Positions 15,322 to 35,811 of a stretch of DNA of 37,168 bases are shown piece by piece. The notes below the pieces were generated by a model. It saw only the letters and a program-made list of their open reading frames with translations, was not told the origin of the DNA and did no database searches. Source of the stretch: Phycisphaerae bacterium (GTDB taxonomy: Bacteria > Planctomycetota > Phycisphaerae > UBA1845 > Fen-1342); NCBI GenBank assembly GCA_050115495.1, contig JASFQK010000052.1, forward strand, positions 1 to 37,168, read 5' to 3'. Each line of letters begins with the position of its first letter. Within the stretch, counting starts at the first letter, position 1. A program made the position numbers and the translations under genes.

Positions 15322-16260
15322 ATGGCAGTGGATCTTCGCGGGCGGAACCTCCTGTCGATGAAGGACCTCACGGGCGAGGAGATCGAGGCGATACTGGCCC
15401 GGGCGGCGGAGCTGAAGGCCGACCGCGCCAAGGTCTTCCGGGAGGCACCGCTGGCGGGCAAGACGCTGGCCATGATTTTCCAGAAGCCGTCGCTGCGGAC
15501 GCGCGTGTCGTTCGAGGCCGGCATGACCAATCTCGGCGGGCACGCCATCTACCTCGCCCCGTCGGACATCAAGCTCGGCCAGCGCGAGACGACCGAGGAC
15601 ATCGCCCTGGTGCTGTCGCGCTACGCCGACGTTATCATGGCCCGAGTGTTCGGCCACAACATCGTCGAGGACCTGGCGAAGTACGCCACGGTGCCGGTGA
15701 TCAACGGGCTGAGCGACTTCGAGCATCCGTGCCAGATTCTGGCGGACCTGCTGACCATCAAGGAACGCAAGGGCAAGCTGCGCGGGCTGAGCGCGACATA
15801 CATCGGCGACGGGAACAACGTGGCGCATTCGCTCATGTACGGGGCGGCGCTCGTCGGCATGAGCATGACGATCACCACGCCGCCGGGCTTCGAGCCGAGC
15901 GAGAAGGTGCTGAAGGAGTCGCAGGAGATCGGCGGCAAGACCGGAGCCCGCGTTCGCGTGGTCAACGACATCAAGGAAGGCGTCGCCGGCACGGACGTGC
16001 TGTACACGGACGTCTGGGCGTCGATGGGGCAGGAAGACCAGGCGGCCGAACGGCGGAACAAGTTCGAGGGGTACCAGATCAACTGCGAACTGCTGAGCCT
16101 GGCCAACAAGGGCGCGGTCATTCTGCACTGCCTGCCGGCACACTACGGCGAAGAGATCGACTACGAGGCGTCGCGCACGCCGAACTCGGCGATCTTCGAT
16201 CAGGCAGAGAATCGCATGCACGCCCAAAATGGGTTGTTGGTGATGGTGGCTCGCGGGTAG
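15322..16260 (+). CDS. argF: Ornithine carbamoyltransferase
   Basis: FQKPSLRTRVSFE, HPCQILAD, GDGNNV, DVWASMG, HCLPA, QAENR. Confidence 0.95.
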   Translation: MAVDLRGRNLLSMKDLTGEEIEAILARAAELKADRAKVFREAPLAGKTLAMIFQKPSLRTRVSFEAGMTNLGGHAIYLAPSDIKLGQRETTEDIALVLSRYADVIMARVFGHNIVEDLAKYATVPVINGLSDFEHPCQILADLLTIKERKGKLRGLSATYIGDGNNVAHSLMYGAALVGMSMTITTPPGFEPSEKVLKESQEIGGKTGARVRVVNDIKEGVAGTDVLYTDVWASMGQEDQAAERRNKFEGYQINCELLSLANKGAVILHCLPAHYGEEIDYEASRTPNSAIFDQAENRMHAQNGLLVMVARG

Positions 16261-16367
16261 CAGATACGGGCGTTCGAGCTTGTGAAACAACCTTGGGTGG
16301 GTCGGGCGTCCCGCCCGAAAACTTCAGAGGGCGAAGAGACAGTGGCGCCCCGCAGGCGGAGTCTCTT

Positions 16368-16411
16368 CGCCCGGAGGGCGCACGGTCGTAGCCAGGGACT
16401 TCAGTCCCTGG
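16368..16411. repeat. Isolated REP-like A+B hairpin unit
   Basis: CGCCCGGAGGGCGCACG-GTCGTAG-CCAGGGACTTCAGTCCCTGG matches 25770-25813 at 42 of 44 nt. Confidence 0.9.
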
Positions 16412-16433
16412 AGCGTTCGAGACCCACACTCCT

Positions 16434-16457
16434 CCTTTTCCCTTGTCCCCTTTTCCC
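16434..16457. repeat. Stuttered half-site of the GGGGACA palindrome family
   Basis: Minus strand reads GGGAAAAGGGGACAAGGGAAAAGG. Confidence 0.45.
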
Positions 16458-16533
16458 TACGACCGCAAGGGTCGCTGAACATGGAGCCCGCCGGATCTTA
16501 TCCATGAGGGAGTTCACGCGTAGTAAACGGGGG

Positions 16534-17646
16534 CTAATTCAGACAGAAGTGAGAAATCTCCCACGACAGGTCAAATGCCTGCTCGTAGTAAATGAGGATC
16601 ATTGCACGATCGATCACGTAGCTGAACGCACCGCCAGTCAGAACGCAGAACGGAGGTAAGACAATGTAGGCCGCAATCCAAGAGGCGCGAATAAAGACCC
16701 TGGACCGATCGGCAGCGAGGCAACGGCCGACGATGACGACCGGTAACACGTAGGCGACTACCTTCAACAACAACCAGCACGCTCGCCTGACGGTGATACC
16801 GGTCATGGGTGCAGCGAGAGAAGCCATGGCGACGGCCAGGGCGAGACACCAGACGATCGGGACCACGGCCCAAGCAGCTCGCCCTGTCGCGAGCAGCGCG
16901 CTCTTCCGGGCAGCACTCTCTTTGTAGGTGCACAGTCTCTCCGCACGGGATAGCCGAGTCCAGAGGGACGCGAAGAGCAGAGAGATACACCACACAACCG
17001 GTGGTATCAGCACCAGATCAATTATGTGACCGCACAGGAGCGGCAGCGCGCGCCAACGGCTAAGCCAGTGAAAACCACCGCCATGATGAGCGTCGCAAGG
17101 CCAATTGTCCGGAGGCTCGAGGACGAACTCGTGCGTGCGCGGGTCGAGTGGTGCTGAAACGTTGTTCCCCGAGATGTCGAAGTCATTCAGATACAGGGTG
17201 GAGGAGTATTGTCCTTCTGGCCAGTGACCGTAGCTTGTGGGACCGTAGCTTACGAATCTCAACGGGCTCATGAGCAACAAAACGGCTGCCACGAGAGGAC
17301 CGATGAGAAGCCATCGCCTTCCCCGCTTGCGTTGTGCCCGGAAGAACCGTGAATCGTATCCAGCGGTCCAGAAGGCACGTGGCATCGGCCGCCAAACACA
17401 GATCGCGGCCAGCAGCAAGGACAACGGGGCCCGAAGCACACTACGTGCGGTGCGGCGCTGCTCTTGCTGATCACTTGTTCCGCACTCTGGGCACGTTTGG
17501 GTTGGCGCGGTGAGCGTATACCCACACTTATAACAAGTGCGAAACACTGGAAGCGCGCTTGTTGCGCCAGAGGACGATCTCTGCATGCGTGAGCGAATAT
17601 GCGATAAGCGTACGTCGCCAGACGTACTGGGCCGGCGGTCCATCAT
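16534..17646 (-). CDS. Multi-TM membrane protein with an N-terminal CxxCGY..CPECG zinc ribbon (candidate partner/immunity gene)
   Basis: CYKCGYTLTAPTQTCPECG; several hydrophobic helices; ATG 17646 overlaps the upstream TGA (ATGA); atypical codon usage. Confidence 0.7.
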   Translation of the reverse strand: MMDRRPSTSGDVRLSHIRSRMQRSSSGATSALPVFRTCYKCGYTLTAPTQTCPECGTSDQQEQRRTARSVLRAPLSLLLAAICVWRPMPRAFWTAGYDSRFFRAQRKRGRRWLLIGPLVAAVLLLMSPLRFVSYGPTSYGHWPEGQYSSTLYLNDFDISGNNVSAPLDPRTHEFVLEPPDNWPCDAHHGGGFHWLSRWRALPLLCGHIIDLVLIPPVVWCISLLFASLWTRLSRAERLCTYKESAARKSALLATGRAAWAVVPIVWCLALAVAMASLAAPMTGITVRRACWLLLKVVAYVLPVVIVGRCLAADRSRVFIRASWIAAYIVLPPFCVLTGGAFSYVIDRAMILIYYEQAFDLSWEISHFCLN

Positions 17647-18098
17647 ATCCTCGGTTGTGCCATGGACTGCGAGGCACCGCTGCGCCGACGCGCTGTGCGC
17701 CACCGACGGGCGATCGCACATGCCAGGGGCAATCCAACGGCCACGAAGATCGGGGACCCCATTGGGGATCCATACCACATACACGTTGCATCGCGCGCCT
17801 CACCGGTGACATTGTCTTTGCATTGGCATTCGCCCCCACACTGTTCTGCCGGTTTGGCGTTACATGGGCTGCTCCGACCAGGATCGCCTTCGCTGAACTC
17901 CTTTTCGCCCTCGCAGCAAACGCACCTACAGCTCAAGCCGCTGGGGCCGGCGCGGTGAGCGAGGTTTGAGGCGCAGTACGCATGAACGTCCATGCCATCA
18001 TGATAACCATCGACAGCCGCGAGGTGTCGTGATAACGGGTCTCGCTGAACAAAGCGCTCCGGAACGTACTCGCGCCGCCGAGTACCGTGAACGCGCTC
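17643..18098 (-). pseudogene. Orphan RHS-repeat core end plus Cys-rich C-terminal domain
   Basis: Extending the 17643..17993 frame upstream gives RRREYVPERFVQRDPL..DGYHDGMDVHAYCASNLAHRAGPSGL, matching the RHS core end R.Y.P..GRF.Q.DP..G..DG.N.Y.Y..NP....DPxGL. Confidence 0.75.
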
Positions 18099-18102
18099 GA
18101 AG

Positions 18103-18165
18103 AAAAGAGGGTATTCGGCTTCCTTAGTGCCGACAAAGTAGAATGTTCGTTTTTGTTGTCCCCTC
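18103..18165. repeat. Degenerate palindrome (GGGGACATTCTAC family)
   Basis: AAAAGAGGGTATTCGGCT...AAAGTAGAATGTTCGTTTTTGTTGTCCCCTC. Confidence 0.55.
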
Positions 18166-18195
18166 TTGCGCCCCGCGGACAGCGGGTGCGAGCGG

Positions 18196-19215
18196 CTAGC
18201 GCGAGGTGCCCGGCGTGGTGTCGCGCGTGGCCAGCAGGTAGAAGAAGAACGCCGCTCCGATGATGTTGGTCAGCACGCCTACCGGGAATTCGAACCCGAC
18301 CGGCCGCTGATGGACGACGGAGAGGGCGACGCGGCCCAGGCCGTCACAGGTGGCGAGGAAGGCTGCGCCGCCGAGTGCGGCTGCGCCCAGTAGCGGCAGC
18401 GTACGCACGCCGAACAGCGCCCGGGCGATGTGTGGGACCATCAAACCCACGAAGCCGATCGGTCCGCAGTTGGCGACAATCACCGCCGTCAGCAGGCTGA
18501 CCAGCGTGAAGCAGCCCCAGATCGTGCGGCCGACGTGGACGCCGCGGGCGGCGGCGAGGTCCGGCCCCAGCCAGAGCAAGTCGATCGCCCGGTGCGAGTA
18601 GACGGCGAACGCCAGCAGCAGTGCGAGCACGACCGCGATCTCGATGTTCGCCGCGGGTCGGTACACGCCGAGCGAGCCCATCAGCCAGACGATGATCTCG
18701 TTGGTGACGGTGCGGTCGGCGAGGAAGCTCACCAGCAGAATGCCGGCTGAACTCGTATACGACACGCAGACGCCGGCGAGCAGCAGCCGCGTCATGTCCT
18801 GCCCGCCGCGCAGCCGGGCCATAAGGTACACGAGGCTCATCGCGGCGATGGCTCCGGCCAGCGCCAGGATCAGCCGCACCGGAAACCAGCCGACATAGCC
18901 CGACAGGCCGGCGAAGAAACCGATCGCCGCCGCCAGCGACGCGCCGCTGGCTACGCCGAGCGTGTACGGTTCGGCGAGCGGGTTGCGGAACAGGGCCTGG
19001 AAGATGACGCCGCTCACCGCGAGGCCGGCGCCGGCCAGCGCTGCCAGGCACGTCCGCGGCACGCGCAGGTGCCAGAAGGGGGCCTGGAAGTCGATCGGGA
19101 ACAGCTCACCCCAGGTGGGTACGGTCGGTCCCAGCAACGTTGAGCCGAGGATCAGCACCAAGGCCGCCGCGCCGAGCACGAGAAAGCGGGCCGGCAGCGA
19201 GCGGGGGCTGGGCAT
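18196..19215 (-). CDS. FecCD/BtuC-family ABC transporter permease
   Basis: LRVPR, QALFRNPLAEPYTLGVASGA, WLMGSL, GPIGFVGLMVPHIAR, PVGVLT. Confidence 0.93.
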   Translation of the reverse strand: MPSPRSLPARFLVLGAAALVLILGSTLLGPTVPTWGELFPIDFQAPFWHLRVPRTCLAALAGAGLAVSGVIFQALFRNPLAEPYTLGVASGASLAAAIGFFAGLSGYVGWFPVRLILALAGAIAAMSLVYLMARLRGGQDMTRLLLAGVCVSYTSSAGILLVSFLADRTVTNEIIVWLMGSLGVYRPAANIEIAVVLALLLAFAVYSHRAIDLLWLGPDLAAARGVHVGRTIWGCFTLVSLLTAVIVANCGPIGFVGLMVPHIARALFGVRTLPLLGAAALGGAAFLATCDGLGRVALSVVHQRPVGFEFPVGVLTNIIGAAFFFYLLATRDTTPGTSR

Positions 19216-19217
19216 GG

Positions 19218-19880
19218 TCACGGCTCGCGGGGCGGATTCTCTTCGGCGTCGTAGCGGTAGAAGTGACGGGCGACGTAGTAGGCCGTTTCGCGGGCGAGCT
19301 TGGCGGTTTCGCGGTCGATGAGCTCGGCGGTCTCCGGCTCGAAGGGTTGACGGTGGTGCGTGACCTGCCGGCCGTCGGGTTCAGCGTCGCGATCGGGCCA
19401 GAGGCGGGCGTGGACGGTCGGTTCGTTTACGCCGATGACCTTGAGCGTCAGCGTGGCCTCGGGGGCGAGCACGGCCTGGTTGGCGTTAGGCAGCGCCTGG
19501 AGGTCCAGGATACGGATGCAGAGCACCTGGTCGGCCTTGAGGGCGCTGCCGGTGCGCTGGATGCTCCACGAGGAGAAGTCGCTGTTCTTCTGCCGCAGGG
19601 CGGTGACGTCGTCGTAGGGGACGATGCGGCTGGGGACCTTGTTGGTCCGCAGCAGGTCGGAGAGCTGCTTGTGCAGGTTGAGATCAAAGACGGGGTTCAT
19701 CTGGGCCGGCCGGGCGTAGTCGATCAGGATGGCCAGTTGGCCTTCGGTGAACTTGAATTCCGGGTCCTGCCACTGGCGCGGTGCGAAGAGCACCCCCAGA
19801 GCGGCGACCATCTTGCAGCCGGCCAGCGGGGCGGCGGCGGCCATCAGAAGCAGCAGCAACAGGCGCGCGGGTCGCCTCAT
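19218..19880 (-). CDS. Lipoprotein of unknown function
   Basis: Lipobox LAGC; similar to the upstream lipoprotein; 1 nt gap to it. Confidence 0.8.
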   Translation of the reverse strand: MRRPARLLLLLLMAAAAPLAGCKMVAALGVLFAPRQWQDPEFKFTEGQLAILIDYARPAQMNPVFDLNLHKQLSDLLRTNKVPSRIVPYDDVTALRQKNSDFSSWSIQRTGSALKADQVLCIRILDLQALPNANQAVLAPEATLTLKVIGVNEPTVHARLWPDRDAEPDGRQVTHHRQPFEPETAELIDRETAKLARETAYYVARHFYRYDAEENPPREP

Positions 19881-19881
19881 G

Positions 19882-20535
19882 CTATTTCACCGTTTCCTGG
19901 CGTTCGTAGAATCGGCCGGCAAGCTGGGCTGCGAAGGCCTGCATGGTCGCTCGTCGGATGGACTGGTCGTCGGTGCCGTACTGGCCGACGGAATCGGGCG
20001 GGTAGGCGACCTCGATCGTGGTCTTGTAGGCCGGCTGGGACGCGGTGTAGGCGGCGTCGAAGACCTTGACGTTGGCGCTCATGTGGCCGCGGTAGAGGTG
20101 CGGACTGTCCGGCTCACGCGTCGTGTATTGCGTCAGCTCGATGAGCATCACGCGGTCGGCCCCGAAGCGCTGCCCGATCTTCGCGGGGTCTTCCTTGTCC
20201 CAGTTCGGGTTGTGGTCCTGGTACTCGACGACCTGGCGGTTGGGCACGAAGGTGGCTCCGTGAACCGTCTCCTCCATGGCCACGCGCACATGCTCCGACA
20301 CGTCGAGCTGCACCCAGCGGTACTCGAACATCGTGTAGGGCTCGGCCCAGACCAGGATGCAGACTTTCTTGTCGGTGAGATAGGGGTACTCGGCCGGCAC
20401 CTTCTTCGTGGGCTCCTGGCCCCAGAGCAGGACGGCGCCGCGGAAGAAGGCGCAGCCGGTCAGGGCCGACAGCAGCACGCCGAGCAGGGCGGCTCGCAGC
20501 AAGGGAGATCGGCTGTACGCAGACACACGCAGCAC
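19882..20535 (-). CDS. Lipoprotein of unknown function
   Basis: GAGGAG RBS before GTG 20535; lipobox LTGC; IGQRFGADRVM segment resembles CsgG/LpoB-like folds. Confidence 0.8.
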   Translation of the reverse strand: MLRVSAYSRSPLLRAALLGVLLSALTGCAFFRGAVLLWGQEPTKKVPAEYPYLTDKKVCILVWAEPYTMFEYRWVQLDVSEHVRVAMEETVHGATFVPNRQVVEYQDHNPNWDKEDPAKIGQRFGADRVMLIELTQYTTREPDSPHLYRGHMSANVKVFDAAYTASQPAYKTTIEVAYPPDSVGQYGTDDQSIRRATMQAFAAQLAGRFYERQETVK

Positions 20536-20686
20536 GGCAGGCTCCTCAACGGGTCCGGGGCGCACGATAGCACTTCGGCGCAGATTTGTATAGCGGCGGG
20601 CCGCGCAGCCGCGTGCCGGCCGTACAATCTGTCGCGCCGGCGGGGCGCGGGCGCGACCCGGTGTACGGCCGGCGCAGGAGCCGCTC

Positions 20687-21448
20687 GTGGAAGCGCAGCG
20701 TGACGGAGTCGGCGGACGGTTCGCGGTGCTCTGCCCGCACTGCGATCGGGCCGTGCGCGCGCAGCCGGGCTGGGCGGGACAGGAAGCACAATGCCCGCAC
20801 TGCCGCGGCGTGTTTCGCGTGCCCGCGGAGCTGTCCGAGGAGCACCCGGTGCTCGGCGAACGGCCGAAGGCGGGGCCGCGTTATCGGTTCAACTTCGGCT
20901 GTCCGCGCTGCGGGACGCTGCTCGAAGCGCACACCGGTCGCTGCGGCGAAGCGGGAACCTGTCCGACCTGCGACGCTCGGCTGATTGTGCCCGGCCTCGA
21001 TGAACGCACGCACATGCCGCTGCCCGCGAAGCTGCTGAACGTCGACGCCCAGGATCCCACGCCGCTGCACGCCTATGCGGCCAGTGGCGAGCAGGCGCCG
21101 CGGATCCAGCGACTGCCCGACGGCCGGCAGGTCATCATCTGCCCGCGCTGCGGCACGCAGTCCGAGATGGACGCGGATAGCTGCGAACGGTGCGGAGCGC
21201 CGTACACGCTGGAGGCGGCGCCGGCCGTCGGTGGGGCCCGGGCGCCGTGGGATGCCGAGTCGCTGGTGCTGGGTATCGTGTCGCTGCCGCTGTTCTTCTG
21301 GTTCGTGCCCGGCATCCTGGCGATCGTCATGGGCGCGCTGAGCCTGCGGGGAGGCATGCGGCGGCGCGGCGCGATCATGCCCATGATCGGCGTGGTGCTG
21401 GGGGCGATCTCAGTGGTCGGGGGGCTGATCTGGTTGGTGATCGGCTGA
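20687..21448 (+). CDS. Triple zinc-ribbon protein with a C-terminal DUF4190-like TM pair
   Basis: CPHC/CPHC, CPRC/CPTC, CPRC/CERC; SLVLGIVSL...GILAIVMG...IGVVLG. Confidence 0.8.
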   Translation: MEAQRDGVGGRFAVLCPHCDRAVRAQPGWAGQEAQCPHCRGVFRVPAELSEEHPVLGERPKAGPRYRFNFGCPRCGTLLEAHTGRCGEAGTCPTCDARLIVPGLDERTHMPLPAKLLNVDAQDPTPLHAYAASGEQAPRIQRLPDGRQVIICPRCGTQSEMDADSCERCGAPYTLEAAPAVGGARAPWDAESLVLGIVSLPLFFWFVPGILAIVMGALSLRGGMRRRGAIMPMIGVVLGAISVVGGLIWLVIG

Positions 21449-21461
21449 GTTGCGACGGCGG

Positions 21462-22409
21462 CTACGGCTGCTGCGCGACCATCTCCAGCGCGTCGGTCGG
21501 CGGGAGCCACACGTTGGCGAGGAAGTGCTCGAGGTAGTAGATGTACGAGTCCGTGCTGAAGAACTGGGAGCTGGCGTGGCCCAACTCCGGGAAGCGGACG
21601 ATCTGCTTCGGGCCGGCGGCGCGGTTGAACAGCAGCTCCACCGAGTCCGCCGTCGCGATCGGGTCCTGCTCGTGCAGGTAGATCAGCAGCGGCTGGTCCA
21701 GCCACTGGATCAGCTCGTCGCTCAGCAGGTCCACGTTCAACTGCCCGGTGATCCACTCTGTCTTGCCGGCGACGACGAAGCCGAAACGCTCGATCTGCGC
21801 GCCGAGCGCCACGGGTGAATCGAGCACGACGGCGTTGACCGCGTCCGGACGTTCAACCGCCACGGTCACCGACGGGATGCTGCCCAGTGACATGCCGAAC
21901 AGCGTGACCTGCGAACGGCCGGTCCGGGAGCGTGCCCAGTCCAGGACCGTTTCCAGATCCCGCCGCAACGTATCCAGCGACGGCTCGCCGCCGCTCTCGC
22001 CAAAGCCCTCGTAGTCGTACATGACCGCCGACCAGCCGTTGTCGGTGAGGATCTGGGCGGAGAACAGATAGCACTCCATCGGTCCGGTATTGCCGCAAGA
22101 GACGACGACCAGACCGCGGTCGAGCTTGGCGGGGAGGTACCACGTGCGGAGGGAGATGCCGTCATCGACGGGGAGCCAGTACTCCTCATACTCCATGCCG
22201 ATGTCGGCGGGGTTGTCGGCGAGCTCCATGCCGCTGAGCTGGAACCGCTCCCGGAGGTCCGCACAGGTGTATTCGGGGTGCAGGATGAGGCGCGAGAGGC
22301 CGAAGTTGACCTCCCCCGGGTCCCAGGGGCCGCCGATGATGCAGCCCATGGGCAGCAGTATGGTGGCGGAGCAGATTGCGATCGCCGAGATCAGAAGCGG
22401 TTTGCGCAT
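21462..22409 (-). CDS. Alpha/beta hydrolase, probably a lipoprotein
   Basis: ..LLPMGC; YDYEGFGESGG, GMSLG, LGH. Confidence 0.88.
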   Translation of the reverse strand: MRKPLLISAIAICSATILLPMGCIIGGPWDPGEVNFGLSRLILHPEYTCADLRERFQLSGMELADNPADIGMEYEEYWLPVDDGISLRTWYLPAKLDRGLVVVSCGNTGPMECYLFSAQILTDNGWSAVMYDYEGFGESGGEPSLDTLRRDLETVLDWARSRTGRSQVTLFGMSLGSIPSVTVAVERPDAVNAVVLDSPVALGAQIERFGFVVAGKTEWITGQLNVDLLSDELIQWLDQPLLIYLHEQDPIATADSVELLFNRAAGPKQIVRFPELGHASSQFFSTDSYIYYLEHFLANVWLPPTDALEMVAQQP

Positions 22410-22569
22410 GCTTTGGCTTCGTATCCATCCGGTGCCGGCGGTGCGGCGCCTCCGCAGGCATCTTAGGGCGCACCAAATGGGGTCTACGGGTATATCGTTC
22501 CGCGGCGGGACCCGCTGGAGCGGTTTGGAGGTGGCGGGAGCGCGCACGGTCAACCGCGTGCGCGGTCTG

Positions 22570-22645
22570 TCCGAGCCCCGACCGGTAGGGAGGGGACAGG
22601 TCGCGGCGCGCGCAGACAACCCCTCGCTGCCGCTCGGGGCTCGGA
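22570..22645. repeat. REP-like inverted repeat pair
   Basis: TCCGAGCCCCGACCGGTAGGGAGGGG ... CCCCTCGCTGCCGCTCGGGGCTCGGA; related half copy CCTCGCTGACGCTCG at 31850-31864. Confidence 0.65.
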
Positions 22646-22909
22646 TTGACGGACGGACGAACGGCTAGACGGGGCCGAACGCTTGGAGGGCCCGCAGAAT
22701 CGCGAAGATGATGGCTCCGAAAGCGACCCAGAACATCGGATATTCCTCCGGCGAAAGCTGAAATCGTTCTCGTTACGACGGCCCGCCGCGTCGCGCTGCG
22801 CACAATCGCCGGTGTCCGCACGCGTCGCGAAACGGGTTGTCTTTCTTATCGGTCGGGCGCGGGCGAAAACCTGTGCCAGCGTAGCCACGAGCCTTGAGCG
22901 GGATGGGGC

Positions 22910-24046
22910 TTACTTGGCGGACATGGGCTGTGGGGGATTCAGTTGGAGCATGCGGTCGAGGGCGACCACCGCCCAGCGGCGGGTTTCGTCGTCGACGGTG
23001 ATGCGGTTGACCGGTTCGCCGGCGACGATGCGGTCGAGCACCCAGCACAGGTGCTTCAGATCGATGCGGTACATCGTCGTGCAGAGGCACTGGATGCCGG
23101 CGAGCGAGCGCACCGTTTTGTCCGGCATGCGGGTCAGGCGATTGACGAGGTGGACCTCGGTGCCGACCGCCCAGTGCGTGCCGGCGGGGGCGTCGCTGAC
23201 GGTCTTGATGATGTACTCGGTGCTGCCGACGAAATCCGCCTGCTGGCAGACGTCCCAGGGGCATTCGGGGTGCACGATGGCCTGGTAGGGCCCCGGCTGG
23301 GCGCGCATGGCGCGGATCTGCTCGACGTTGAACAACTGGTGGACCGAGCAGTGGCCCTTCCAGAGGAGGATGCGGGCGTCGCGGATCTGGTCCGGCCGCA
23401 GGCCGCCGTTGGGCATCGCCGGATCGAAGACGGCCATGCTCTTCAGCGGCCAGCCGAGGGCGTAAGCGGTGTTGCGGCCGAGGTGCTGGTCGGGGAGGAA
23501 GAGGACTTTGTGGCCCGCACGAGGGTCGCCGTCGGGCGTGGCGCCGTGCAGGGCCCAGTCGAGCACGAGCCGGGCATTCGAGCTCGTGCAGCAGGCTCCG
23601 TCCTGGCGACCGACGAACGCCTTCACGTCCGCCGCCGAGTTGACGTACGTCACCGGCGTGATGGGCATGCCGGCGTGCTGCGTGAGCGACTCCCAGGCGT
23701 CCTCGACGTCGTCGATGTCGGCCATGTCGGCCATGCTGCAACCGGCGGAGAGGTCGGGGAGGATGACCTGCTGCCGGTCAGAGGTCAGGATGTCCGCCGA
23801 CTCGGCCATGAAATGCACGCCGCAGAAGACGATGTATTCGGCGTCTTTCTGCTGGGCGGCGAGCTGGGCAAGCTTGAGGCTGTCGCCGGTGAAGTCGGCG
23901 AAAGCGATCACGTCGTCCTGCTGGTAGTGGTGGCCGAGGATGACGAGCCGGCGGCCGAGGCGGTCGCGGGCGGCCTGGATGCGGCGGCGGAGCTCGTCGT
24001 CGGTCTGTTGGGCGTATTCGGGCGAGAGCGGGAGTTGGTACAACAT
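22910..24046 (-). CDS. nadA: Quinolinate synthase
   Basis: ILGHHYQ, GDSLKL, FCGVHFMAE, AGCSMAD, YVNS, CTSSNA, PDQHLG, HPEC, GSTEYI. Confidence 0.97.
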   Translation of the reverse strand: MLYQLPLSPEYAQQTDDELRRRIQAARDRLGRRLVILGHHYQQDDVIAFADFTGDSLKLAQLAAQQKDAEYIVFCGVHFMAESADILTSDRQQVILPDLSAGCSMADMADIDDVEDAWESLTQHAGMPITPVTYVNSAADVKAFVGRQDGACCTSSNARLVLDWALHGATPDGDPRAGHKVLFLPDQHLGRNTAYALGWPLKSMAVFDPAMPNGGLRPDQIRDARILLWKGHCSVHQLFNVEQIRAMRAQPGPYQAIVHPECPWDVCQQADFVGSTEYIIKTVSDAPAGTHWAVGTEVHLVNRLTRMPDKTVRSLAGIQCLCTTMYRIDLKHLCWVLDRIVAGEPVNRITVDDETRRWAVVALDRMLQLNPPQPMSAK

Positions 24047-24331
24047 TCTCGGTGGTCCTGCCTCTCCATGGCGACCGGGCCTGGCCCGGGCGTGGGTCGC
24101 CGGTAACGTATGGATCTTAGCGGCCCGTCGGAGAGGGGTACAGCCGCCGCGCCGGGGTGGCGGGGGCGGCTCGTCCGGCGTGCTCGGCGTGGACGAGGGC
24201 TGGACGCCGGAGACGAAGACGTCCGGCGACCGGTGGGTGCTGCCCAAATGCGACGATCTGGGTCGCTGAATTGCGAAGGCGGTGTATGATGGGGATAGTG
24301 GCGGGAGTCAGTGGGAGGCGCCAGAGGAGAG

Positions 24332-24386
24332 AAGGGGATCTTCCGCCCTTTCTGTCGGCAGCAAGTGGAACGTCCCCTTGTTCCCC
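24332..24386. repeat. Palindrome (GGGGACATTCTAC family), left of the cargo lipoprotein
   Basis: AAGGGGATCTTCCGC...GTGGAACGTCCCCTT (arms complementary at 12 of 15 nt) plus a GTTCCCC stutter. Confidence 0.7.
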
Positions 24387-24408
24387 GGTGCATTCGAAAG
24401 GTTCTCGG

Positions 24409-25593
24409 ATGAGCGATACGAGGAGACGTTGCTGGTACGTGCTCTGTGCCGTCACCGTAGCAGGTTGCATGTGCATCGCTGTTAGTGGTTGCGATCAGAG
24501 CAGCACGGCGCGTGTCAAGTCTCCGTACGACTCGCGCAAATACCAGAGCGCGGTTGCCGCTGTGGAGTCCGAACTTGAGCGCCTTCGACAGGAGAGTGCC
24601 CCTAAGGAGTTGGCCGACGCATACGTGGGAGCCCTTGACTTCTTACGGTCGCATCCCGAGCTGCAGTTCGCATCTCCGTACCTGGTCTCAGCGACGGCCA
24701 GCCGCGTTGGAACATACGAGGAGGTATTCCGCGTCACATTGGTGTGGCTCGAGGGGCGTGACCTGGCGAAGACTGTGAGCCTGGAAGATGCAGATGGGCA
24801 AGTAGTCGCTGTTGCACAGTGGCAACACGTGGCCCACCGAGAGGCGATAGAGAATGCAGGCTGCCACGTTGTCAGGCCAATCCTGGTCGCGCCACCGACC
24901 TTGGACGACGAAGCAGAGCGGCAGCTTGCGGATAATCTCGCCTATGGTTCGGTGCGCCTGACCGCTGCGCAGTTGGGGCGGGTGAGCGGCATGTCCATCG
25001 CATCCGCCGACGGTGCTCGGAGCAACTCCGTGACGCTGCGACGCAGCTACCGCTCGTTGAAGGAGCAGGCGGTCGAAGAGTTGCGGCGGTCCGTAGACTG
25101 TGTCGCCTCACTGCTTGGGGGCGTGAGCCCGCAAGCGCTCGCGCATCTGCAGTCGACAGTCACAGCCACCATCGCGGACCTGGAGGATCGCCCGGAGGAA
25201 GCGTTTGATAGCCCGGTACCGGTGAGCGCGAGAGTCGATCGGGTAGCCGGCGAACCGGAGCGCATGGTGCTGTCGGTCGCTTGGCTTGAAAGTGGATTCC
25301 GCGTCAACGGCTTATTCTTCCGCGACTCAGCGGGCGTGACGAATGACTTTGACATCGTTGCGTGGGACGCGGCCGAGCGGGCGGAGGCGCGGTTTCTTCG
25401 AGCGAAAGTCTACGAGATAGTGCCGGACGATGAACGCAGCGATGAGACGCCAGCGACGCGGTCACGTTGGCCGGTTCTACGTTTGCCTGAGTCCGTTTAC
25501 TCGCAACTCGGCAACTTATCTGTAGGTCTGATCACACGCGATGGAGAACGCACGGATACGATTGAGTGCCCCGTGATTGAGCTGGCGCACTAG
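24409..25593 (+). CDS. Hypothetical lipoprotein with two tandem homologous domains
   Basis: Lipobox VSGC; HPELQFASPYLVSA..VTLVWLE..DADG..DGARSNSV repeats as RPEEAFDSPVPVSA..LSVAWLE..DSAG..DGERTDTI; atypical codon usage. Confidence 0.75.
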   Translation: MSDTRRRCWYVLCAVTVAGCMCIAVSGCDQSSTARVKSPYDSRKYQSAVAAVESELERLRQESAPKELADAYVGALDFLRSHPELQFASPYLVSATASRVGTYEEVFRVTLVWLEGRDLAKTVSLEDADGQVVAVAQWQHVAHREAIENAGCHVVRPILVAPPTLDDEAERQLADNLAYGSVRLTAAQLGRVSGMSIASADGARSNSVTLRRSYRSLKEQAVEELRRSVDCVASLLGGVSPQALAHLQSTVTATIADLEDRPEEAFDSPVPVSARVDRVAGEPERMVLSVAWLESGFRVNGLFFRDSAGVTNDFDIVAWDAAERAEARFLRAKVYEIVPDDERSDETPATRSRWPVLRLPESVYSQLGNLSVGLITRDGERTDTIECPVIELAH

Positions 25594-25594
25594 A

Positions 25595-25645
25595 GAAGAC
25601 GGACATCGTGCTTTGTCCGTTGTCAATAAATAGAATGTCGTCTTC
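25595..25645. repeat. Palindrome (GGGGACATTCTAC family), right of the cargo lipoprotein
   Basis: GAAGACGGACATCGTGCTTT...AAATAGAATGTCGTCTTC, starting 2 nt after the stop. Confidence 0.7.
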
Positions 25646-25660
25646 GGTCCTTGCGTCCCG

Positions 25661-25857
25661 CGTGCGCCCTCCGGGCGAAGAAAACTGGGGGGGGCCGCAT
25701 CCAGGGACTGAAGTCCCTGGCAACCAACGTGCGCCCTCCGGGCGAGGAGAGAGCGCACCGCCGGCTTTTCGCCCGGAGGGCGCACGAACGTAGCCAGGGA
25801 CTTCAGTCCCTGGTCGAAAGCGTGTATTCTCTTATTCACCCGCCCGGAGGGCGCACG
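25661..25857. repeat. REP-like cluster upstream of tnpA (A-B-A / A'-B'-A')
   Basis: A=CGTGCGCCCTCCGGGCG at 25661 and 25728, inverted at 25770 and 25841; B=CCAGGGACTGAAGTCCCTGG at 25701, inverted at 25794. Confidence 0.92.
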
Positions 25858-25873
25858 AAATCGGGGTCTGACC

Positions 25874-26326
25874 ATGCCGAGCGCATACACGCAGAACTTC
25901 TATCACGCCGTCTTCAGCACTACACAGCGTGCCAACCTGCTGACGCCGGATCTGGAAGCTCGACTCTACCCCTTCATCGGCGGCATCGTGCGCGAGCTGC
26001 GCTGCACGCTCCTGGCGATCAACGGCATGCCGGATCACGTTCACCTTCTGGTACGCTATCGCCCGGACCTATCGCATTCGGATCTGCTCCGGCAGGTCAA
26101 GGGCAGGTCATCCAAGTGGATCAACGAGACGTTCCCGCAATCCGGGCGCTTCGCCTGGCAGGAGGGCTACGGCGGGTTCACGGTTAGCAAGTCCATCGTG
26201 CCCGAGGTCGAAGCCTACATCGCGCGGCAGAAGGAACACCACAAACGCCAGGACTTCCGGACGGAGTTCCTCGAACTGCTTCGCCGGCACGGCATCGAAT
26301 TCGATGAACGCGATGTGTTCGCCTAA
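25874..26326 (+). CDS. tnpA: IS200/IS605-family HUH Y1 transposase-like nuclease (REP-associated)
   Basis: YHAVFST, PDHVHLL (HUH), VKGRSSKW, FAWQEGYGGFTVS, YIARQKEHH (catalytic Tyr); no tnpB. Confidence 0.93.
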   Translation: MPSAYTQNFYHAVFSTTQRANLLTPDLEARLYPFIGGIVRELRCTLLAINGMPDHVHLLVRYRPDLSHSDLLRQVKGRSSKWINETFPQSGRFAWQEGYGGFTVSKSIVPEVEAYIARQKEHHKRQDFRTEFLELLRRHGIEFDERDVFA

Positions 26327-26335
26327 CCAGCAGTC

Positions 26336-26476
26336 CGTGCGCCCTCCGGGCGAAGAGAAATGGGGGGGCGGCATTCCAGGGACTGAAGTCCCTGGCAACG
26401 ATCGTGCGCCCTCCGGGCGGGAAACGGAGGCACGGTGCGCCCTCCGGGCGAAGACGCAACGTGCGCCCTGCGGGCG
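26336..26476. repeat. REP-like cluster downstream of tnpA (A-B-A-A-A)
   Basis: A at 26336, 26403, 26434 and variant at 26460; B at 26376-26395. Confidence 0.92.
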
Positions 26477-26480
26477 AGGA

Positions 26481-26532
26481 GGAAGAGGGGGACATTCTGC
26501 GTTTTGAGGAAGGGGGAGGCATTCTGCGTTTT
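26481..26532. repeat. Two tandem half-sites of the GGGGACATTCT family
   Basis: GGGGGACATTCTGCGTTTT followed by GGGGAGGCATTCTGCGTTTT. Confidence 0.7.
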
Positions 26533-26585
26533 CGGCGGGGGATGGGGGGGATCGCGGGGAGGCAGTCCATCTTTTCAACGGGCTG

Positions 26586-27023
26586 CTAACGTGGGTTGCG
26601 GGGGGAATCCGCCGGTTTGGGTGAGGCTGGGGTGCTGGCGGCGCGGCGTTGGCGCCAGGTCAGGAGGGCTAGCACGGTGCCCATACCGAAGAGGTCGCAG
26701 AGCCAGTCGACGAAGTCGGTGCCGCGGCCGAACCAGGCCTGAGACCATTCATCGATGGCGCCGTACGCAGCGATCGTGATCCCCGCGAACCACAGGTACC
26801 ACGGCGGCAGGGGGCGCCAGAAGGTCTCGCCGAAACGCCAGAGCAGAAACGCGAGCAGGCCGTAGGCACAGACGTGGGCGAGATAGGCGCTGCCAGGAAC
26901 ATCTCCCAGACGCAACGCCGGGAAGTGCGTGACGGCGAAGAGGAACGCCCAGTACGCGGGCAGCGTGCGGCGGTACCAATCATCCCAGCGGGACAGACGC
27001 CTCCCCGGAGCCGGCGCGGTCAC
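26586..27023 (-). CDS. VanZ-family membrane protein
   Basis: AHVCAYGLL, YGAIDEWSQAWFGRGTDFVDWLCD; GTGA overlap with the parA stop. Confidence 0.85.
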   Translation of the reverse strand: MTAPAPGRRLSRWDDWYRRTLPAYWAFLFAVTHFPALRLGDVPGSAYLAHVCAYGLLAFLLWRFGETFWRPLPPWYLWFAGITIAAYGAIDEWSQAWFGRGTDFVDWLCDLFGMGTVLALLTWRQRRAASTPASPKPADSPRNPR

Positions 27024-29856: not shown

Positions 29857-31581
29857 ATGATGCGTAAGCCGCGCTTTTTCCGGTACTTTCCGCCGCTAGT
29901 CATGACCTGTCTGGCGCTTCTGTTTGCGAGCATGCTGACGCTGTCACTGGGCGGTTGCCCGCGGCCGGACGACGGCACGCCGGACGGCAGCACCGACGGT
30001 GACGGCACCACCGATGGTGACGGGACCACCGACGGCGATGGCACGACCGATGGTGATGGCACTACGGATGGTGACGGTACGACCGATGGCGATGGCACCA
30101 CGGACGGCGACGGAACGACCGACGGCGGTGACGACGTTGGCGGCGATCCCGCGACGCCCGTGCCGACGACGATTACGTTGCAGACGCTCGTGAAAACGGG
30201 CGACGCCGTGCCGGGAGTGACCGGGGCGACGTTCACGTCGTTCGGCAGCCCCATTATCGACGACAACGGCCGGGTCGCGTTCTGGGCGCTCTACACCGGC
30301 GGTACGGGCGACGGCGGCCTGTACGTCTGGGAGAACAGCACGCTGCGGCGCATTGTCGACGATACGACCGACTTCACCGGCGACGTGCCGGGCGGGAGCG
30401 AAAGCGAGTACTACGGCACTTACCAGCCGTCCACCGGCTACGATCCGCTGGCGGCCGAACTGACCTGGGGCAAGGACGGGCGGCTGCTGTTTACCACGCG
30501 CATCAGCGGCGGTGCCGGGCGAACCGGTCTGTTCCGCTGGCGAGCAAGCGACGAAGACATGATCGTCGTCGCCGACTCGAGCATGATCGCCGACGCCTTC
30601 GGTTTCGACGTCAGCGGCTTCCTGCCCGAGTTCTCCAACCACGGCGTGTCGGACAACGGCCTGGTGCTGTTCCAGATCGACTATACGCGGATCACGACGT
30701 CGGGCTTCTCCGGCGGGACGGCGATTTGCATGAGCAACGGGCTGGAGGTCACGCTGCTGGCCCAGGAGAGAGTGGCGGGGACGGTGCCCACGCAGGGTAC
30801 GACCGTGCGTTTCGACTCGTTCCCCACGCCGACGGCGGTCAGCCCAAATGCCCAGATGCTCTTCAGCGGCTACTACATCAACGGTGTGGGCGACGTCGGG
30901 TTGTACCTGTCCGACGGCGGGGCGGCGGCGATCCGCGTGGTCGATAACCGTCCGGACCTGACGCTGCCCGGCCTGCCGGCGAACGCCCAAATCGGCGCGT
31001 CCGGTGAGGACTACATCTTTGCCGTCGGGGCCAACGACCACATCGCCGTCCAGACGAAGGTCATCGAGGACAGCGTTTCCCACGAGGCCATCATCCTCTG
31101 GGACTGGGACGCCGTTAGCTGGAGCGAACTGGCCACGACGGGCTGCACGCGGGCGACGAAGCTCCTGTCGGGCGTGAGCGACGGCGGGGCCGTGCTGGCG
31201 CTCGCCGGCGGGACGCCATACATCATTGACGACTCGAACTCCGTCAGCATCGCGGAGCACCTGTCGGCGGACCTGACCGGGGTGACGGTCACGTGGGCGA
31301 CGTCGGGCGGCGCGATCAACAACTCCGGCCACGCGATCGTGCCGTACAAGCGTTCCGGAGCGACGCCGGGGCTGGGCTTCTGGACGAACGACGGGCTGCT
31401 GATCCTGGCGGATCCGCAGGCCGGTTTGCCGGGCACGAACGTGGCGTCGATCACCGCCGATTCGGAGCCGGTTACCGACCGGCCGGGTCGTTCGGGGATT
31501 CTGAACGACGACGACTGGGCGGTGTTCCAGGTTGAATACGATTCGGGGGCGGAGGCGATCTTCCTGGGCCGGGCCCAGTAG
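29857..31581 (+). CDS. Exported lipoprotein with a TDGDGT repeat linker and a beta-rich (NxxGxxAF-like) domain
   Basis: GAGGAG RBS; LGGC lipobox; PIIDDNGRVAF, INNSGHAIV, LNDDDWAVF repeats. Confidence 0.8.
   Translation: MMRKPRFFRYFPPLVMTCLALLFASMLTLSLGGCPRPDDGTPDGSTDGDGTTDGDGTTDGDGTTDGDGTTDGDGTTDGDGTTDGDGTTDGGDDVGGDPATPVPTTITLQTLVKTGDAVPGVTGATFTSFGSPIIDDNGRVAFWALYTGGTGDGGLYVWENSTLRRIVDDTTDFTGDVPGGSESEYYGTYQPSTGYDPLAAELTWGKDGRLLFTTRISGGAGRTGLFRWRASDEDMIVVADSSMIADAFGFDVSGFLPEFSNHGVSDNGLVLFQIDYTRITTSGFSGGTAICMSNGLEVTLLAQERVAGTVPTQGTTVRFDSFPTPTAVSPNAQMLFSGYYINGVGDVGLYLSDGGAAAIRVVDNRPDLTLPGLPANAQIGASGEDYIFAVGANDHIAVQTKVIEDSVSHEAIILWDWDAVSWSELATTGCTRATKLLSGVSDGGAVLALAGGTPYIIDDSNSVSIAEHLSADLTGVTVTWATSGGAINNSGHAIVPYKRSGATPGLGFWTNDGLLILADPQAGLPGTNVASITADSEPVTDRPGRSGILNDDDWAVFQVEYDSGAEAIFLGRAQ
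29992..30117 (+). repeat. Seven 18-bp tandem coding repeats (TDGDGT)
   Basis: ACN GAY GGY GAY GGN ACN x7 with only synonymous variation. Confidence 0.95.
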
Positions 31582-34734: not shown

Positions 34735-35811
34735 ATGAAGTACAGCCTCATGTCGGTGATGTTGTGCGTGGTCCTGTTGGCCGCGGCGGTGGCTCAGGGA
34801 CAGGTTGATCCGGGAACGGTGCACGGTTGGGGGTGGAACGCGCACAACCAATGTACGGTGCCGACGCCGAACGCGGACTTCGTCGCCATCTCGGCGGGCG
34901 GGCAGCACAGCCTCGGGCTGAAGTCGGATGGGACAGTCGTGGCCTGGGGCGATAACGCCAGCGGGCAGTGCAACGTGCCGTCGCCGAACGCAGACTTCGT
35001 GGCGGTCGCTGCCGGCTACGACCATAGCATGGGGCTGAAGTCGGATGGATCGATCGTGGTCTGGGGCGCGAACAGCAGCGGGCAATGCAACGTGCCCGCG
35101 CCCAACGCCGACTTCGTGCAGATTTCGGCGGGGTTTTCGCACAGTCTCGCCCTGCGGGCGAATGGGACGGTAGCGGCCTGGGGCTGGAGCAGCTTCGGGC
35201 AGTGCAACGTGCCGTCGCCGAACGCCGACTTCGTGGCGGTCGGGGCCGGCGGCGGGTTCAGCGCCGGGCTGAAGTCCGACGGACACGTCGTGGCCTGGGG
35301 CTGGAACGACCTCGGTCAGTGCACCGTCCCCGAGCCCAACGAGGGGTACGTGGCGCTGGCGACCGGTTCCGGACATACGCTCGGGCTGCGCGGTGATGGG
35401 TCGATCGTCGGTTGGGGCATCACCACGGATGGGCAGTGCACGGTACCGACGCCGAATATCAGCTTCGTGATGATCTCGGCGGGTGGATCGCATAGCCTGG
35501 GGCTGAAGGATTTCGGCATGGTGGCGGCGTGGGGAGCGAACGGGAACGGGCAGTGCGACGTGCCATCGCCGAACGCGAACTTCGTCGCCGTTGCGGGCGG
35601 CGCGTCGCATAGCCTCGCGCTGGAAGGGTACTGGGGCGACTTCGACGCGGATGGCTGGGTAGATGCGGCGGACCTGTCGCTGCTGGCCGGGGCGCTGAAC
35701 GGCCCGCAGCAGATCAGCGGACCGGGGTCCCATCGGTTCTCACTCGATGGGGACTGGGACGTGGATCTGGCGGACTTCGCCCGGTTCCAGGCGCCGAGCA
35801 CGGGGGATTAA
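34735..35811 (+). CDS. Secreted RCC1-repeat protein with a dockerin-like C-terminus
   Basis: Signal peptide; seven about 39-aa repeats (AWG.N..GQC.VP.PN.DFVA..AG..HSLGLKSDG); GDFDADGWVDAADL and DGDWDVDLADF. Confidence 0.9.
   Translation: MKYSLMSVMLCVVLLAAAVAQGQVDPGTVHGWGWNAHNQCTVPTPNADFVAISAGGQHSLGLKSDGTVVAWGDNASGQCNVPSPNADFVAVAAGYDHSMGLKSDGSIVVWGANSSGQCNVPAPNADFVQISAGFSHSLALRANGTVAAWGWSSFGQCNVPSPNADFVAVGAGGGFSAGLKSDGHVVAWGWNDLGQCTVPEPNEGYVALATGSGHTLGLRGDGSIVGWGITTDGQCTVPTPNISFVMISAGGSHSLGLKDFGMVAAWGANGNGQCDVPSPNANFVAVAGGASHSLALEGYWGDFDADGWVDAADLSLLAGALNGPQQISGPGSHRFSLDGDWDVDLADFARFQAPSTGD

Follow-up and report, generated by a model that had tools for sequence, protein, structure and literature searches.

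Miniature TIRtron ends beside foreign DNA and Rhs fragments in a Phycisphaerae genome

The window analysed here is a stretch of 37,168 nucleotides, contig JASFQK010000052.1 (C52) of the Phycisphaerae bacterium assembly GCA_050115495.1, in which two blocks of foreign-looking DNA lie next to a family of palindromes that we call P. P is a miniature, gene-less copy of the ends of a TIRtron, an element made of a Y1 transposase gene with terminal inverted repeats (TIRs), and the transposase gene (TIRYT) is located on another contig of the same genome, C6. At several loci P lies beside truncated pieces of Rhs cores, and we consider it somewhat better than an even chance (a probability of roughly 0.55) that the C6 TIRYT, acting in trans, joined or deleted foreign DNA at P mini-elements, Rhs pieces included.

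The window belongs to a genome of 5.97 Mb in 85 contigs (92% complete; G000), and records from Phycisphaerae are the nearest matches of its NadA. Contigs of this genome carry the prefix C, other genomes the prefix G, and extracted loci the prefix L. Two further repeat families are relevant: Q, a second TIR family, and A/B, the hairpins resembling repetitive extragenic palindromes (REPs) that belong to the Y1 transposase encoded in the window (window TnpA). An initial annotation, made from the sequence of the window, had proposed that single genes or modules with Rhs C-terminal tips (Rhs-CT) are shuffled between hairpin sites in an integron-like manner, possibly driven by an HUH nuclease.

P arms and the TIRYT gene on C6

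The P profile was trained on near-exact arms, one window arm among them, and its significance was gauged by comparing matches in the genome with those in the reversed genome at a score of at least 17. By this measure the palindromes form a coherent family, as the initial annotation had supposed, with 28 arm matches at 22 loci against a single match in the reversed genome. The three dimers of the window are decayed, and their own folding is no better than that of shuffled sequences (z -1.3 to -1.6). The core of P, GGGGACAT, agrees with GGGGWSAS at 7 of 8 positions, and that of Q, GGGGACAG, fits it.

Of six Y1 matches in the genome, one is a gene for a 221-aa protein (C6:14165-14827) with P arms immediately on either side that point inward. 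The protein contains the motifs SHFH, WQ and YIERSP, with NP present in two close homologs, and it fits TnpA-Y1 subclass 2.1, whose members are long and have H[YF]H, WQ, Y---NP and a C-terminal extension. This subclass corresponds to the TIRYTs of TIRtrons, described together with TIR repeat families (PMC3733652, Di Nocera et al. 2013; PMC6006769, Quentin et al. 2018; published sources are cited here from the passages available to us). The best 30 TIRYT loci from 201 genomes of the class and the best 30 loci of window TnpA homologs were compared. P arms occur at 13 of the 30 TIRYT loci (12/29 without the C6 locus itself) and at none of the 29 subclass-1.2 loci other than the window. A P arm is present in 29 of the 201 genomes, and a close TIRYT is found in 20 of these 29 as compared with 55 of the remaining 172, related genomes not being independent in this count. 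In metagenomes, where a scan of 3 of 64 parts gave 127 loci with an exact arm, P is accompanied by TIRYT sequence, either the gene or a remnant of it, in 29 cases and by a subclass-1.2 gene in one. The inward-facing arm pairs (n=94) measure 47-138 nt in 71 cases, 140-400 nt in seven (three with remnants), 400-800 nt in 15 (14 with a gene) and 805 nt in one, and they are a deletion series that leads from 47-nt minis via remnants to full elements of 740 nt. The arms flanking the C6 gene, the association with TIRYT loci, this size series and the co-occurrence across genomes are the grounds on which we regard P as a miniature TIRtron. An extra outer GGGGACA core precedes 32 of 298 arms (5 and 3 in controls). 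Viral contigs gave seven single-arm matches, none with a TIRYT or Rhs, which are probably due to chance.

The view that an HUH nuclease drives P thus holds in so far as a Y1 family owns P and is encoded elsewhere, on C6, and fails for the window TnpA, which is not the cognate enzyme. With 150 aa and the motifs DHVH, WQ and YIARQKEHH, the latter fits subclass 1.2 (DH[IV]H, WQ, Y---Q--HH, about 148 aa), and its A/B hairpin clusters are found on both sides of tnpA and at 23 loci of the genome; A-like hairpins flank 8 of 30 homologs. As the enzyme of P it was rejected, given its own A/B hairpins and the absence of P from the 29 other genes of its kind. Q consists of 64 compact, polarised TIR dimers, most of which follow the stop codon of a host gene at a distance of a few bases, and neither a flanked transposase gene nor an assigned TIRYT was identified for it in the genome. 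As a marker of cargo Q was rejected (7/68 by gene calls, 5/74 by composition).

The island around the TIRtron (C6:9000-25000, or L195) holds further P arms, a Fic/DOC-MazE pair, PEP-CTERM genes, a TPR protein and DUF4279; at L195:15028-15090 a short repeat of another family has very high depth in run X1.

Two foreign blocks between host genes

Both blocks are atypical, as had been noted from the sequence: their GC contents are 0.598 (block 1) and 0.615 (block 2) as compared with 0.661 for the window, their GC contents at third codon positions (GC3) are 0.67 and 0.69 against a genome median of 0.86, and the codon scores of both fall within the lowest 5%. They do not interrupt host genes, as had been thought, and instead lie between intact ones (Table 1). 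Palindromes do bound them at the dimers 18103, 24332 and 25595 and at the arms 26483-26531, although the supposed half-site at 16434 is mostly REP spacer, and A/B units do lie within about 25 nt of block boundaries (about 23 and 13 nt). Contigs of the probable source run, which is not an independent data set, cover 16383-25729 with zero differences, so that the blocks are not a join artefact of one assembly. Rfam gave no match within 16000-27000.

Table 1. Features of the two blocks and their flanks, in window coordinates.
Feature	Position	Strand	Basis
argF-type ornithine carbamoyltransferase, intact host gene, left flank of block 1	15322..16260	+	Pfam OTCace; host codon usage
A/B REP-like hairpin unit of subclass-1.2 TnpA	16368..16411	.	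folds, z -3.2
Purine/pyrimidine tract (former half-site), mostly A/B REP spacer; ambiguous	16430..16457	-	final 14 nt = P terminus
Foreign membrane protein, CxxC-CPECG zinc ribbon, immunity-gene position behind Rhs-CT	16534..17586 (alternative start 17784)	-	GC3 0.67
Decayed Rhs core tail and Cys-rich C-terminal tip, beginning at P arm	17643..18100	-	pairwise Rhs alignment
P mini-element: decayed TIR dimer (18103-18155) and extra outer GGGGAC core	18103..18167	-	P profile
FecCD permease, intact host gene, right flank of block 1	18196..19215	-	67-69% to genus homologs
nadA, intact host gene; directly after vanZ in relatives	22910..24046	-	domain match; synteny
Left arm of Q-family TIR mini-element, left insertion edge	24122..24155	+	profile score 13.1; 0 of 11.9 million reversed-genome positions as high
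Rhs core fragment with in-frame stop, ends at P arm	24203..24320	+	79-81% nucleotide identity to C67 Rhs array repeats
P mini-element (TIR dimer)	24332..24382	.	P profile
Foreign 394-aa lipoprotein-like open reading frame (cargo 2), rare family, putative	24409..25593	+	GC3 0.69
P mini-element (TIR dimer), 1 nt past cargo 2 stop codon	25595..25647	-	P profile; sequence
A/B REP-like cluster upstream of tnpA	25661..25856	.	A/B family (23 loci)
Y1 transposase, 150 aa, DHVH / WQ / YIARQKEHH, subclass 1.2	25874..26326	+	motifs vs PMC6006769 Table 1
A/B REP-like cluster downstream of tnpA	26336..26476	+	A/B family (23 loci)
Two single P arms (starts 26483, 26510), first fused to REP spacer at GGGGAC	26483..26531	+	scores 30 and 19; junction common to C26 spacer
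Right arm of Q mini-element, right insertion edge, abuts vanZ stop codon	26549..26586	+	profile score 16.7; 0 of 11.9 million reversed-genome positions as high
vanZ-family host gene	26586..27023	-	NCBIfam vanZ_1; synteny

Block 2 is a lineage-specific, recent insertion of 2.46 kb that is nested inside the split arms of a Q mini-element. It extends from 24122 to 26586, a larger span than the 24390-25593 originally assigned to it, and includes an Rhs fragment that lies outside the P pair; between the two Q arms follow this fragment, P, the ORFan (cargo 2), P, the REP-tnpA-REP unit and the single P arms. An empty site in relatives had been anticipated and was found: in 11 of 20 regions of relatives (4/5 in the genus) vanZ and nadA are no more than about 200 nt apart, the remainder comprising one gap of 660 nt and eight regions without an adjacent vanZ, and the vanZ-nadA gaps of the relatives contain no P, A/B or Q. 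The Q arms of block 2 have the correct polarity and form the sole split Q pair at kilobase scale among 23 unpaired arms. From a comparison with these gaps and from aligned motifs, the insertion point appears to lie between the likely -35 and -10 elements of nadA and would therefore split its probable promoter. The P pair has no flanking target duplication in the sequence, and Y1 enzymes are not known to leave one.

The cargo 2 open reading frame was not found in 250 genomes of the order, and its profile has zero matches in 400 other genomes of the phylum. Its family comprises 11 weak remote homologs, and the Atlas match reaches only 0.76. By eye, the protein resembles a tandem duplication of a rare secreted domain of 200 aa, to the second half of which the remote homologs align.

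Block 1 has the order P, decayed Rhs core tail and tip, zinc-ribbon membrane gene and A/B unit. The presence of an Rhs piece, already suspected, is borne out by a pairwise alignment to the Rhs core of C70 (33% over 93 aa, E 2e-08), the tail falling below TIGR03696 detection because it is decayed. The layout of core tail, variable tip and downstream gene is that of an orphan Rhs-CT/immunity module, and the position of the zinc-ribbon gene behind the Rhs-CT makes it a candidate for an immunity role. Its protein has zero homologs at E<=1e-3 among 7997 candidates and zero Pfam matches; as both tip and downstream gene are without family matches, toxicity and cognate immunity are putative. The tract at 16434 was rejected as a P arm, since it is not recognised by the P profile, does not fold and recurs in A/B REP spacers on C8, C25 and C15. 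It coincides with the P terminus in its last 14 nt only, which leaves block 1 with a single clear P boundary. As fecCD adjoins argF in none of 24 argF regions, that junction is not conserved and no empty site could be found for this block; the 3' neighbours of argF, fecCD, purQ and yraN differ even within the genus. In G023, a genome of a different genus, argF is followed by foreign-looking genes, by GGGGACAG-type arms and by an A/B unit (L124:4300-7100), a comparable pile-up at the same gene end.

Elsewhere in the window, positions 1-125 represent, like many contig ends, an end of a multi-copy insertion sequence (IS) with 9-bp target duplications, which breaks the assembly; its flanks pair C52 with C44 and join 15 other contig pairs. 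Intragenic repeats occur at 29965-30148 (8 copies at an 18-nt period) and 34849-35667 (6 copies at a 117-nt period).

P beside Rhs pieces and competing explanations

Using trimmed Rhs queries and a distance limit of 250 nt, we found an Rhs core piece beside 5 of the 22 P loci (twice in the window, and on C22, C64 and C70) as compared with 0.5% of random intergenic sites; outside the window the count is 3 of 18. No such piece lies near Q (0/74) or A/B (0/23). The five cores are broken off at five different positions, and beyond P the sequence continues in every case with unrelated DNA instead of the remaining core. About 130 nt separate P from the core on C70, where a suspected GIY-YIG fragment gave no Pfam match. 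In a hexamer model, 14 of 22 P flanks fall into the lowest fifth (p 1e-5, or 4e-4 with the window left out), as compared with 5 of 74 Q flanks. The Rhs arrays of the genome itself contain no P, nor was it found in any of 12 Rhs regions in four P-rich genomes, and P was rejected as a routine site of Rhs-CT exchange. The idea that P borders foreign DNA and Rhs-CTs stands for the atypical flanks and the five Rhs pieces, whereas the Rhs arrays without P, and the many copies between ordinary host genes, do not conform to it.

C70 terminates in one end of an IS and C22 in the other, and their flanks share 8 bp, the sole 8-bp match among 33 by 22 ends. Joining them would give yraN, P, a slice of core tail, tip, IS, zinc-ribbon gene and next core start, P and purQ, and thus a second P-bracketed Rhs-CT/immunity-like slice between host genes. 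In G171, near-identical, co-oriented P minis of 106 nt bracket genes with a GC3 of 0.72-0.76 (about 0.9 otherwise) that encode TPR, MORN and ankyrin proteins or proteins without an assigned family, and are not Rhs. Two P mini-elements that bracket unrelated DNA are accordingly seen in block 2 and G171 and inferred for C70-C22. In G107, G055 and G135 truncated Rhs cores adjoin P or a TIRtron, and one such element lies inside an Rhs array on a metagenome contig. In hand-picked clusters, 8 of 17 genes between two P sites were low in GC3, as compared with 30 of 300 (first batch, excluding overlapping loci, loci below 2.5 kb and those with under three genes). At C10:22511-23309 a P arm is followed by an Imm11-family immunity gene, which we count in support of TIRYT action at P.

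Isolated Rhs-like pieces without a P arm are present at C15:131678, C28:7582, C34:30932, C80:1951 and on C8, beside phage-satellite-like or IS genes in the first four cases. At C2:181120-184766 a weak P arm adjoins a low-GC cluster of ThiF/DUF6791, multi-ubiquitin, HTH and IrrE-like genes, which we take to resemble a ubiquitin-like conjugation locus. The 106-nt minis of G171 were recently amplified and form co-oriented arrays with tandem end repeats.

In the reading we prefer, the TIRYT would act in trans on single-stranded P arms, cutting and rejoining them, by extension from TnpA-REP enzymes, which cut and join cognate single-stranded hairpins in vitro (PMC8266576). P minis would spread behind stop codons and beside other hairpins, and an arm would sometimes be joined to distant DNA, giving adjacent deletions or TIME-like composites of mini, cargo and mini. 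Foreign slices, including pieces of Rhs toxin-immunity arrays, could in this way be joined to the ends of host genes or trimmed back to P. P, Q and A/B elements may prefer hairpin-rich or GGGGAC-containing sites, and the extra outer GGGGACA cores would fit repeated cutting or insertion there. In block 2, Q may have arrived first, followed by the Rhs/ORFan slice with P and then by the A/B-tnpA element. Several observations count against TIRYT action of this kind. No excision, circle or empty allele was seen at P or the TIRtron, circular junctions having been among the original predictions, in two runs of contigs, one of them probably the source sample and the second a small share, contig sets being prone to drop rare variants. 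A/B flanks are atypical as well (10/23 in the lowest fifth), so that part of the P signal is general hot-spot behaviour, and by gene calls alone the enrichment at P is weak (7/21, 3.7 expected, p 0.07). In other genomes the enrichment of Rhs right beside P was not replicated: Rhs occurs in 4 of 354 P flanks and in 13 of 1166 distant windows of the same loci, which is no difference, and in 0 of 4658 housekeeping windows. A second batch of the low-GC3 test was not significant (2/4, 7/33, 18/152), many of the P copies of G019, G102 and G215 have host-like genes on both sides, and the C70-C22 duplication is 8 bp whereas 16 other pairs match at 9 bp. In the literature searched, as far as its passages were available, no biochemical test of any TIRYT was found. 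The wider notion that TIRYTs are gene-capture recombinases, which join foreign single-stranded DNA and notably slices of Rhs toxin tip and immunity gene to minis behind host stop codons, is doubtful.

Alternatively, the islands and the Rhs debris may have come by other routes, with P, Q and A/B inserted later and the junctions made by ordinary repeat deletions. Such a passive pile-up, possible rather than probable in our judgement, would account for the stacking of three unrelated repeat families at one site, for the proximity of P to A/B (3/22 loci, as compared with 0.5%) and for the atypical flanks of both; it also fits the Rhs pieces on C15, C28, C34 and C8 that have no P arm and the equal frequency of Rhs far from and beside P within P-bearing loci elsewhere. 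However, it predicts both halves of an Rhs core around P, and P in large arrays, neither of which is seen. Neither Q, which has three times as many loci as P, nor A/B is ever in contact with Rhs. That the window TnpA and its hairpins brought the cargo, P being incidental, we hold to be very improbable. An A/B unit borders both blocks, A/B loci have atypical flanks, and tnpA moved recently, as a second copy on C26 is 98.7% identical; this copy is, however, without P or cargo and shares only the REP-tnpA-REP unit, the cargo of block 2 lies outside the REP-bounded unit, P is absent from the other genes of this type, and A/B never abuts an Rhs core.

An unlikely explanation is the dedicated integron-like system originally proposed, in which P would be a cassette site and genes or Rhs-CT/immunity modules would be captured singly and reshuffled. 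It draws on cargo 2, which sits flush between two P dimers with its stop codon 1 nt from P, on the co-oriented minis that separate single low-GC3 genes in G171, and on the inferred P-bracketed C70-C22 module. Against it, slices begin and end inside Rhs cores at differing positions, Rhs arrays are without P, and no array of uniform polarity lies beside the C6 TIRtron. The cargo was found in no second context, neither variant contigs nor movement were seen, and the window dimers are decayed. As had been stated before, neither an integron integrase (no match over the TIGR02249 cut-off in a genome that is 92% complete) nor attC (no match to RYYYAAC...GTTRRRY at five boundary stretches on both strands, by regular expression alone) was detected. 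Instead of whole-gene cassettes of uniform polarity, an arrangement that only the single array of G171 resembles, we observed cuts in the middle of Rhs cores and nested piles, and no exchange. Nothing yet demonstrates an ordered, integron-like cassette system, and the P units resemble composite mini-transposons and scars of adjacent rearrangements more than an ordered cassette array.

Significance and relation to known systems

Among the groups of Y1 proteins, subclass 2.1 ranks second in size, with an occurrence in 14.9% of strains (PMC6006769), and is little studied. The present genome offers named substrates (P, Q and A/B), two candidate enzymes with separable repeats, an empty site and Rhs-TIR junctions, so that the question whether Y1 enzymes move host-relevant DNA becomes directly testable. 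If capture by TIRYTs were true, it would represent an integrase-free route in Planctomycetota by which immunity genes are scattered and co-oriented arrays such as that of G171 are built.

The orphan Rhs-CT/immunity modules (PMC3150448) share with the window a core fragment, a toxin tip and a downstream gene in the immunity position, whereas the pieces described here are decayed, stand apart from all Rhs loci and stop at TIR palindromes. No link between TIRs and Rhs pieces was found in the literature searched, and the supplements of PMC3733652 and PMC6006769 may list these repeats; in the available part of a 2026 Rhs preprint (10.64898/2026.07.13.738213) the terms palindrome, inverted repeat, transposase and hairpin do not occur. 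Integrons likewise feature short imperfect palindromes beside the stop codons of foreign genes and differ in the points raised above, namely IntI, the attC pattern and boundaries in mid-gene. The window TnpA resembles subclass 1.2 in its size of about 150 aa, DHVH, WQ, Y---Q--HH and low copy number. Table 1 of PMC6006769 gives no REP for this subclass, whereas the window gene sits in A/B hairpin clusters that recur at 23 genome loci, and the window thus shows subclass 1.2 with REP-like hairpins against a classification that lists none.

With REPtrons, that is RAYTs and their REPs and REPINs (PMC8266576), P has in common an HUH enzyme and cognate palindromes that spread non-autonomously behind stop codons; it differs in that it lacks the GTAG foot and derives from terminal inverted repeats, and cleavage, shown for RAYTs, is putative for the TIRYT. 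The TIME mosaic transposons (PMC4133298) are also gene-less minis that flank unrelated DNA and depend on a transposase in trans, although theirs is a Tn3-family enzyme with target duplications of 5-6 bp, and movement has been shown for TIMEs, whereas for the P pair it is putative and no target duplication flanks the pair. The closest relation is to TIRtrons, with which P shares the Y1 gene with inverted repeats, the GGGG-W-S-A core and the dispersed gene-less ends in single, dimeric and grouped form. Differences are that GGGGACAT is one base off GGGGWSAS, which Q fits, and that the available passages of PMC3733652 and PMC6006769 do not mention TIRs that bound foreign genes, truncate Rhs cores or are nested. 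TIRtrons, TIR dimers, subclass 1.2 and orphan Rhs modules have thus been described before; new here are P loci that abut Rhs-core pieces truncated away from Rhs arrays.

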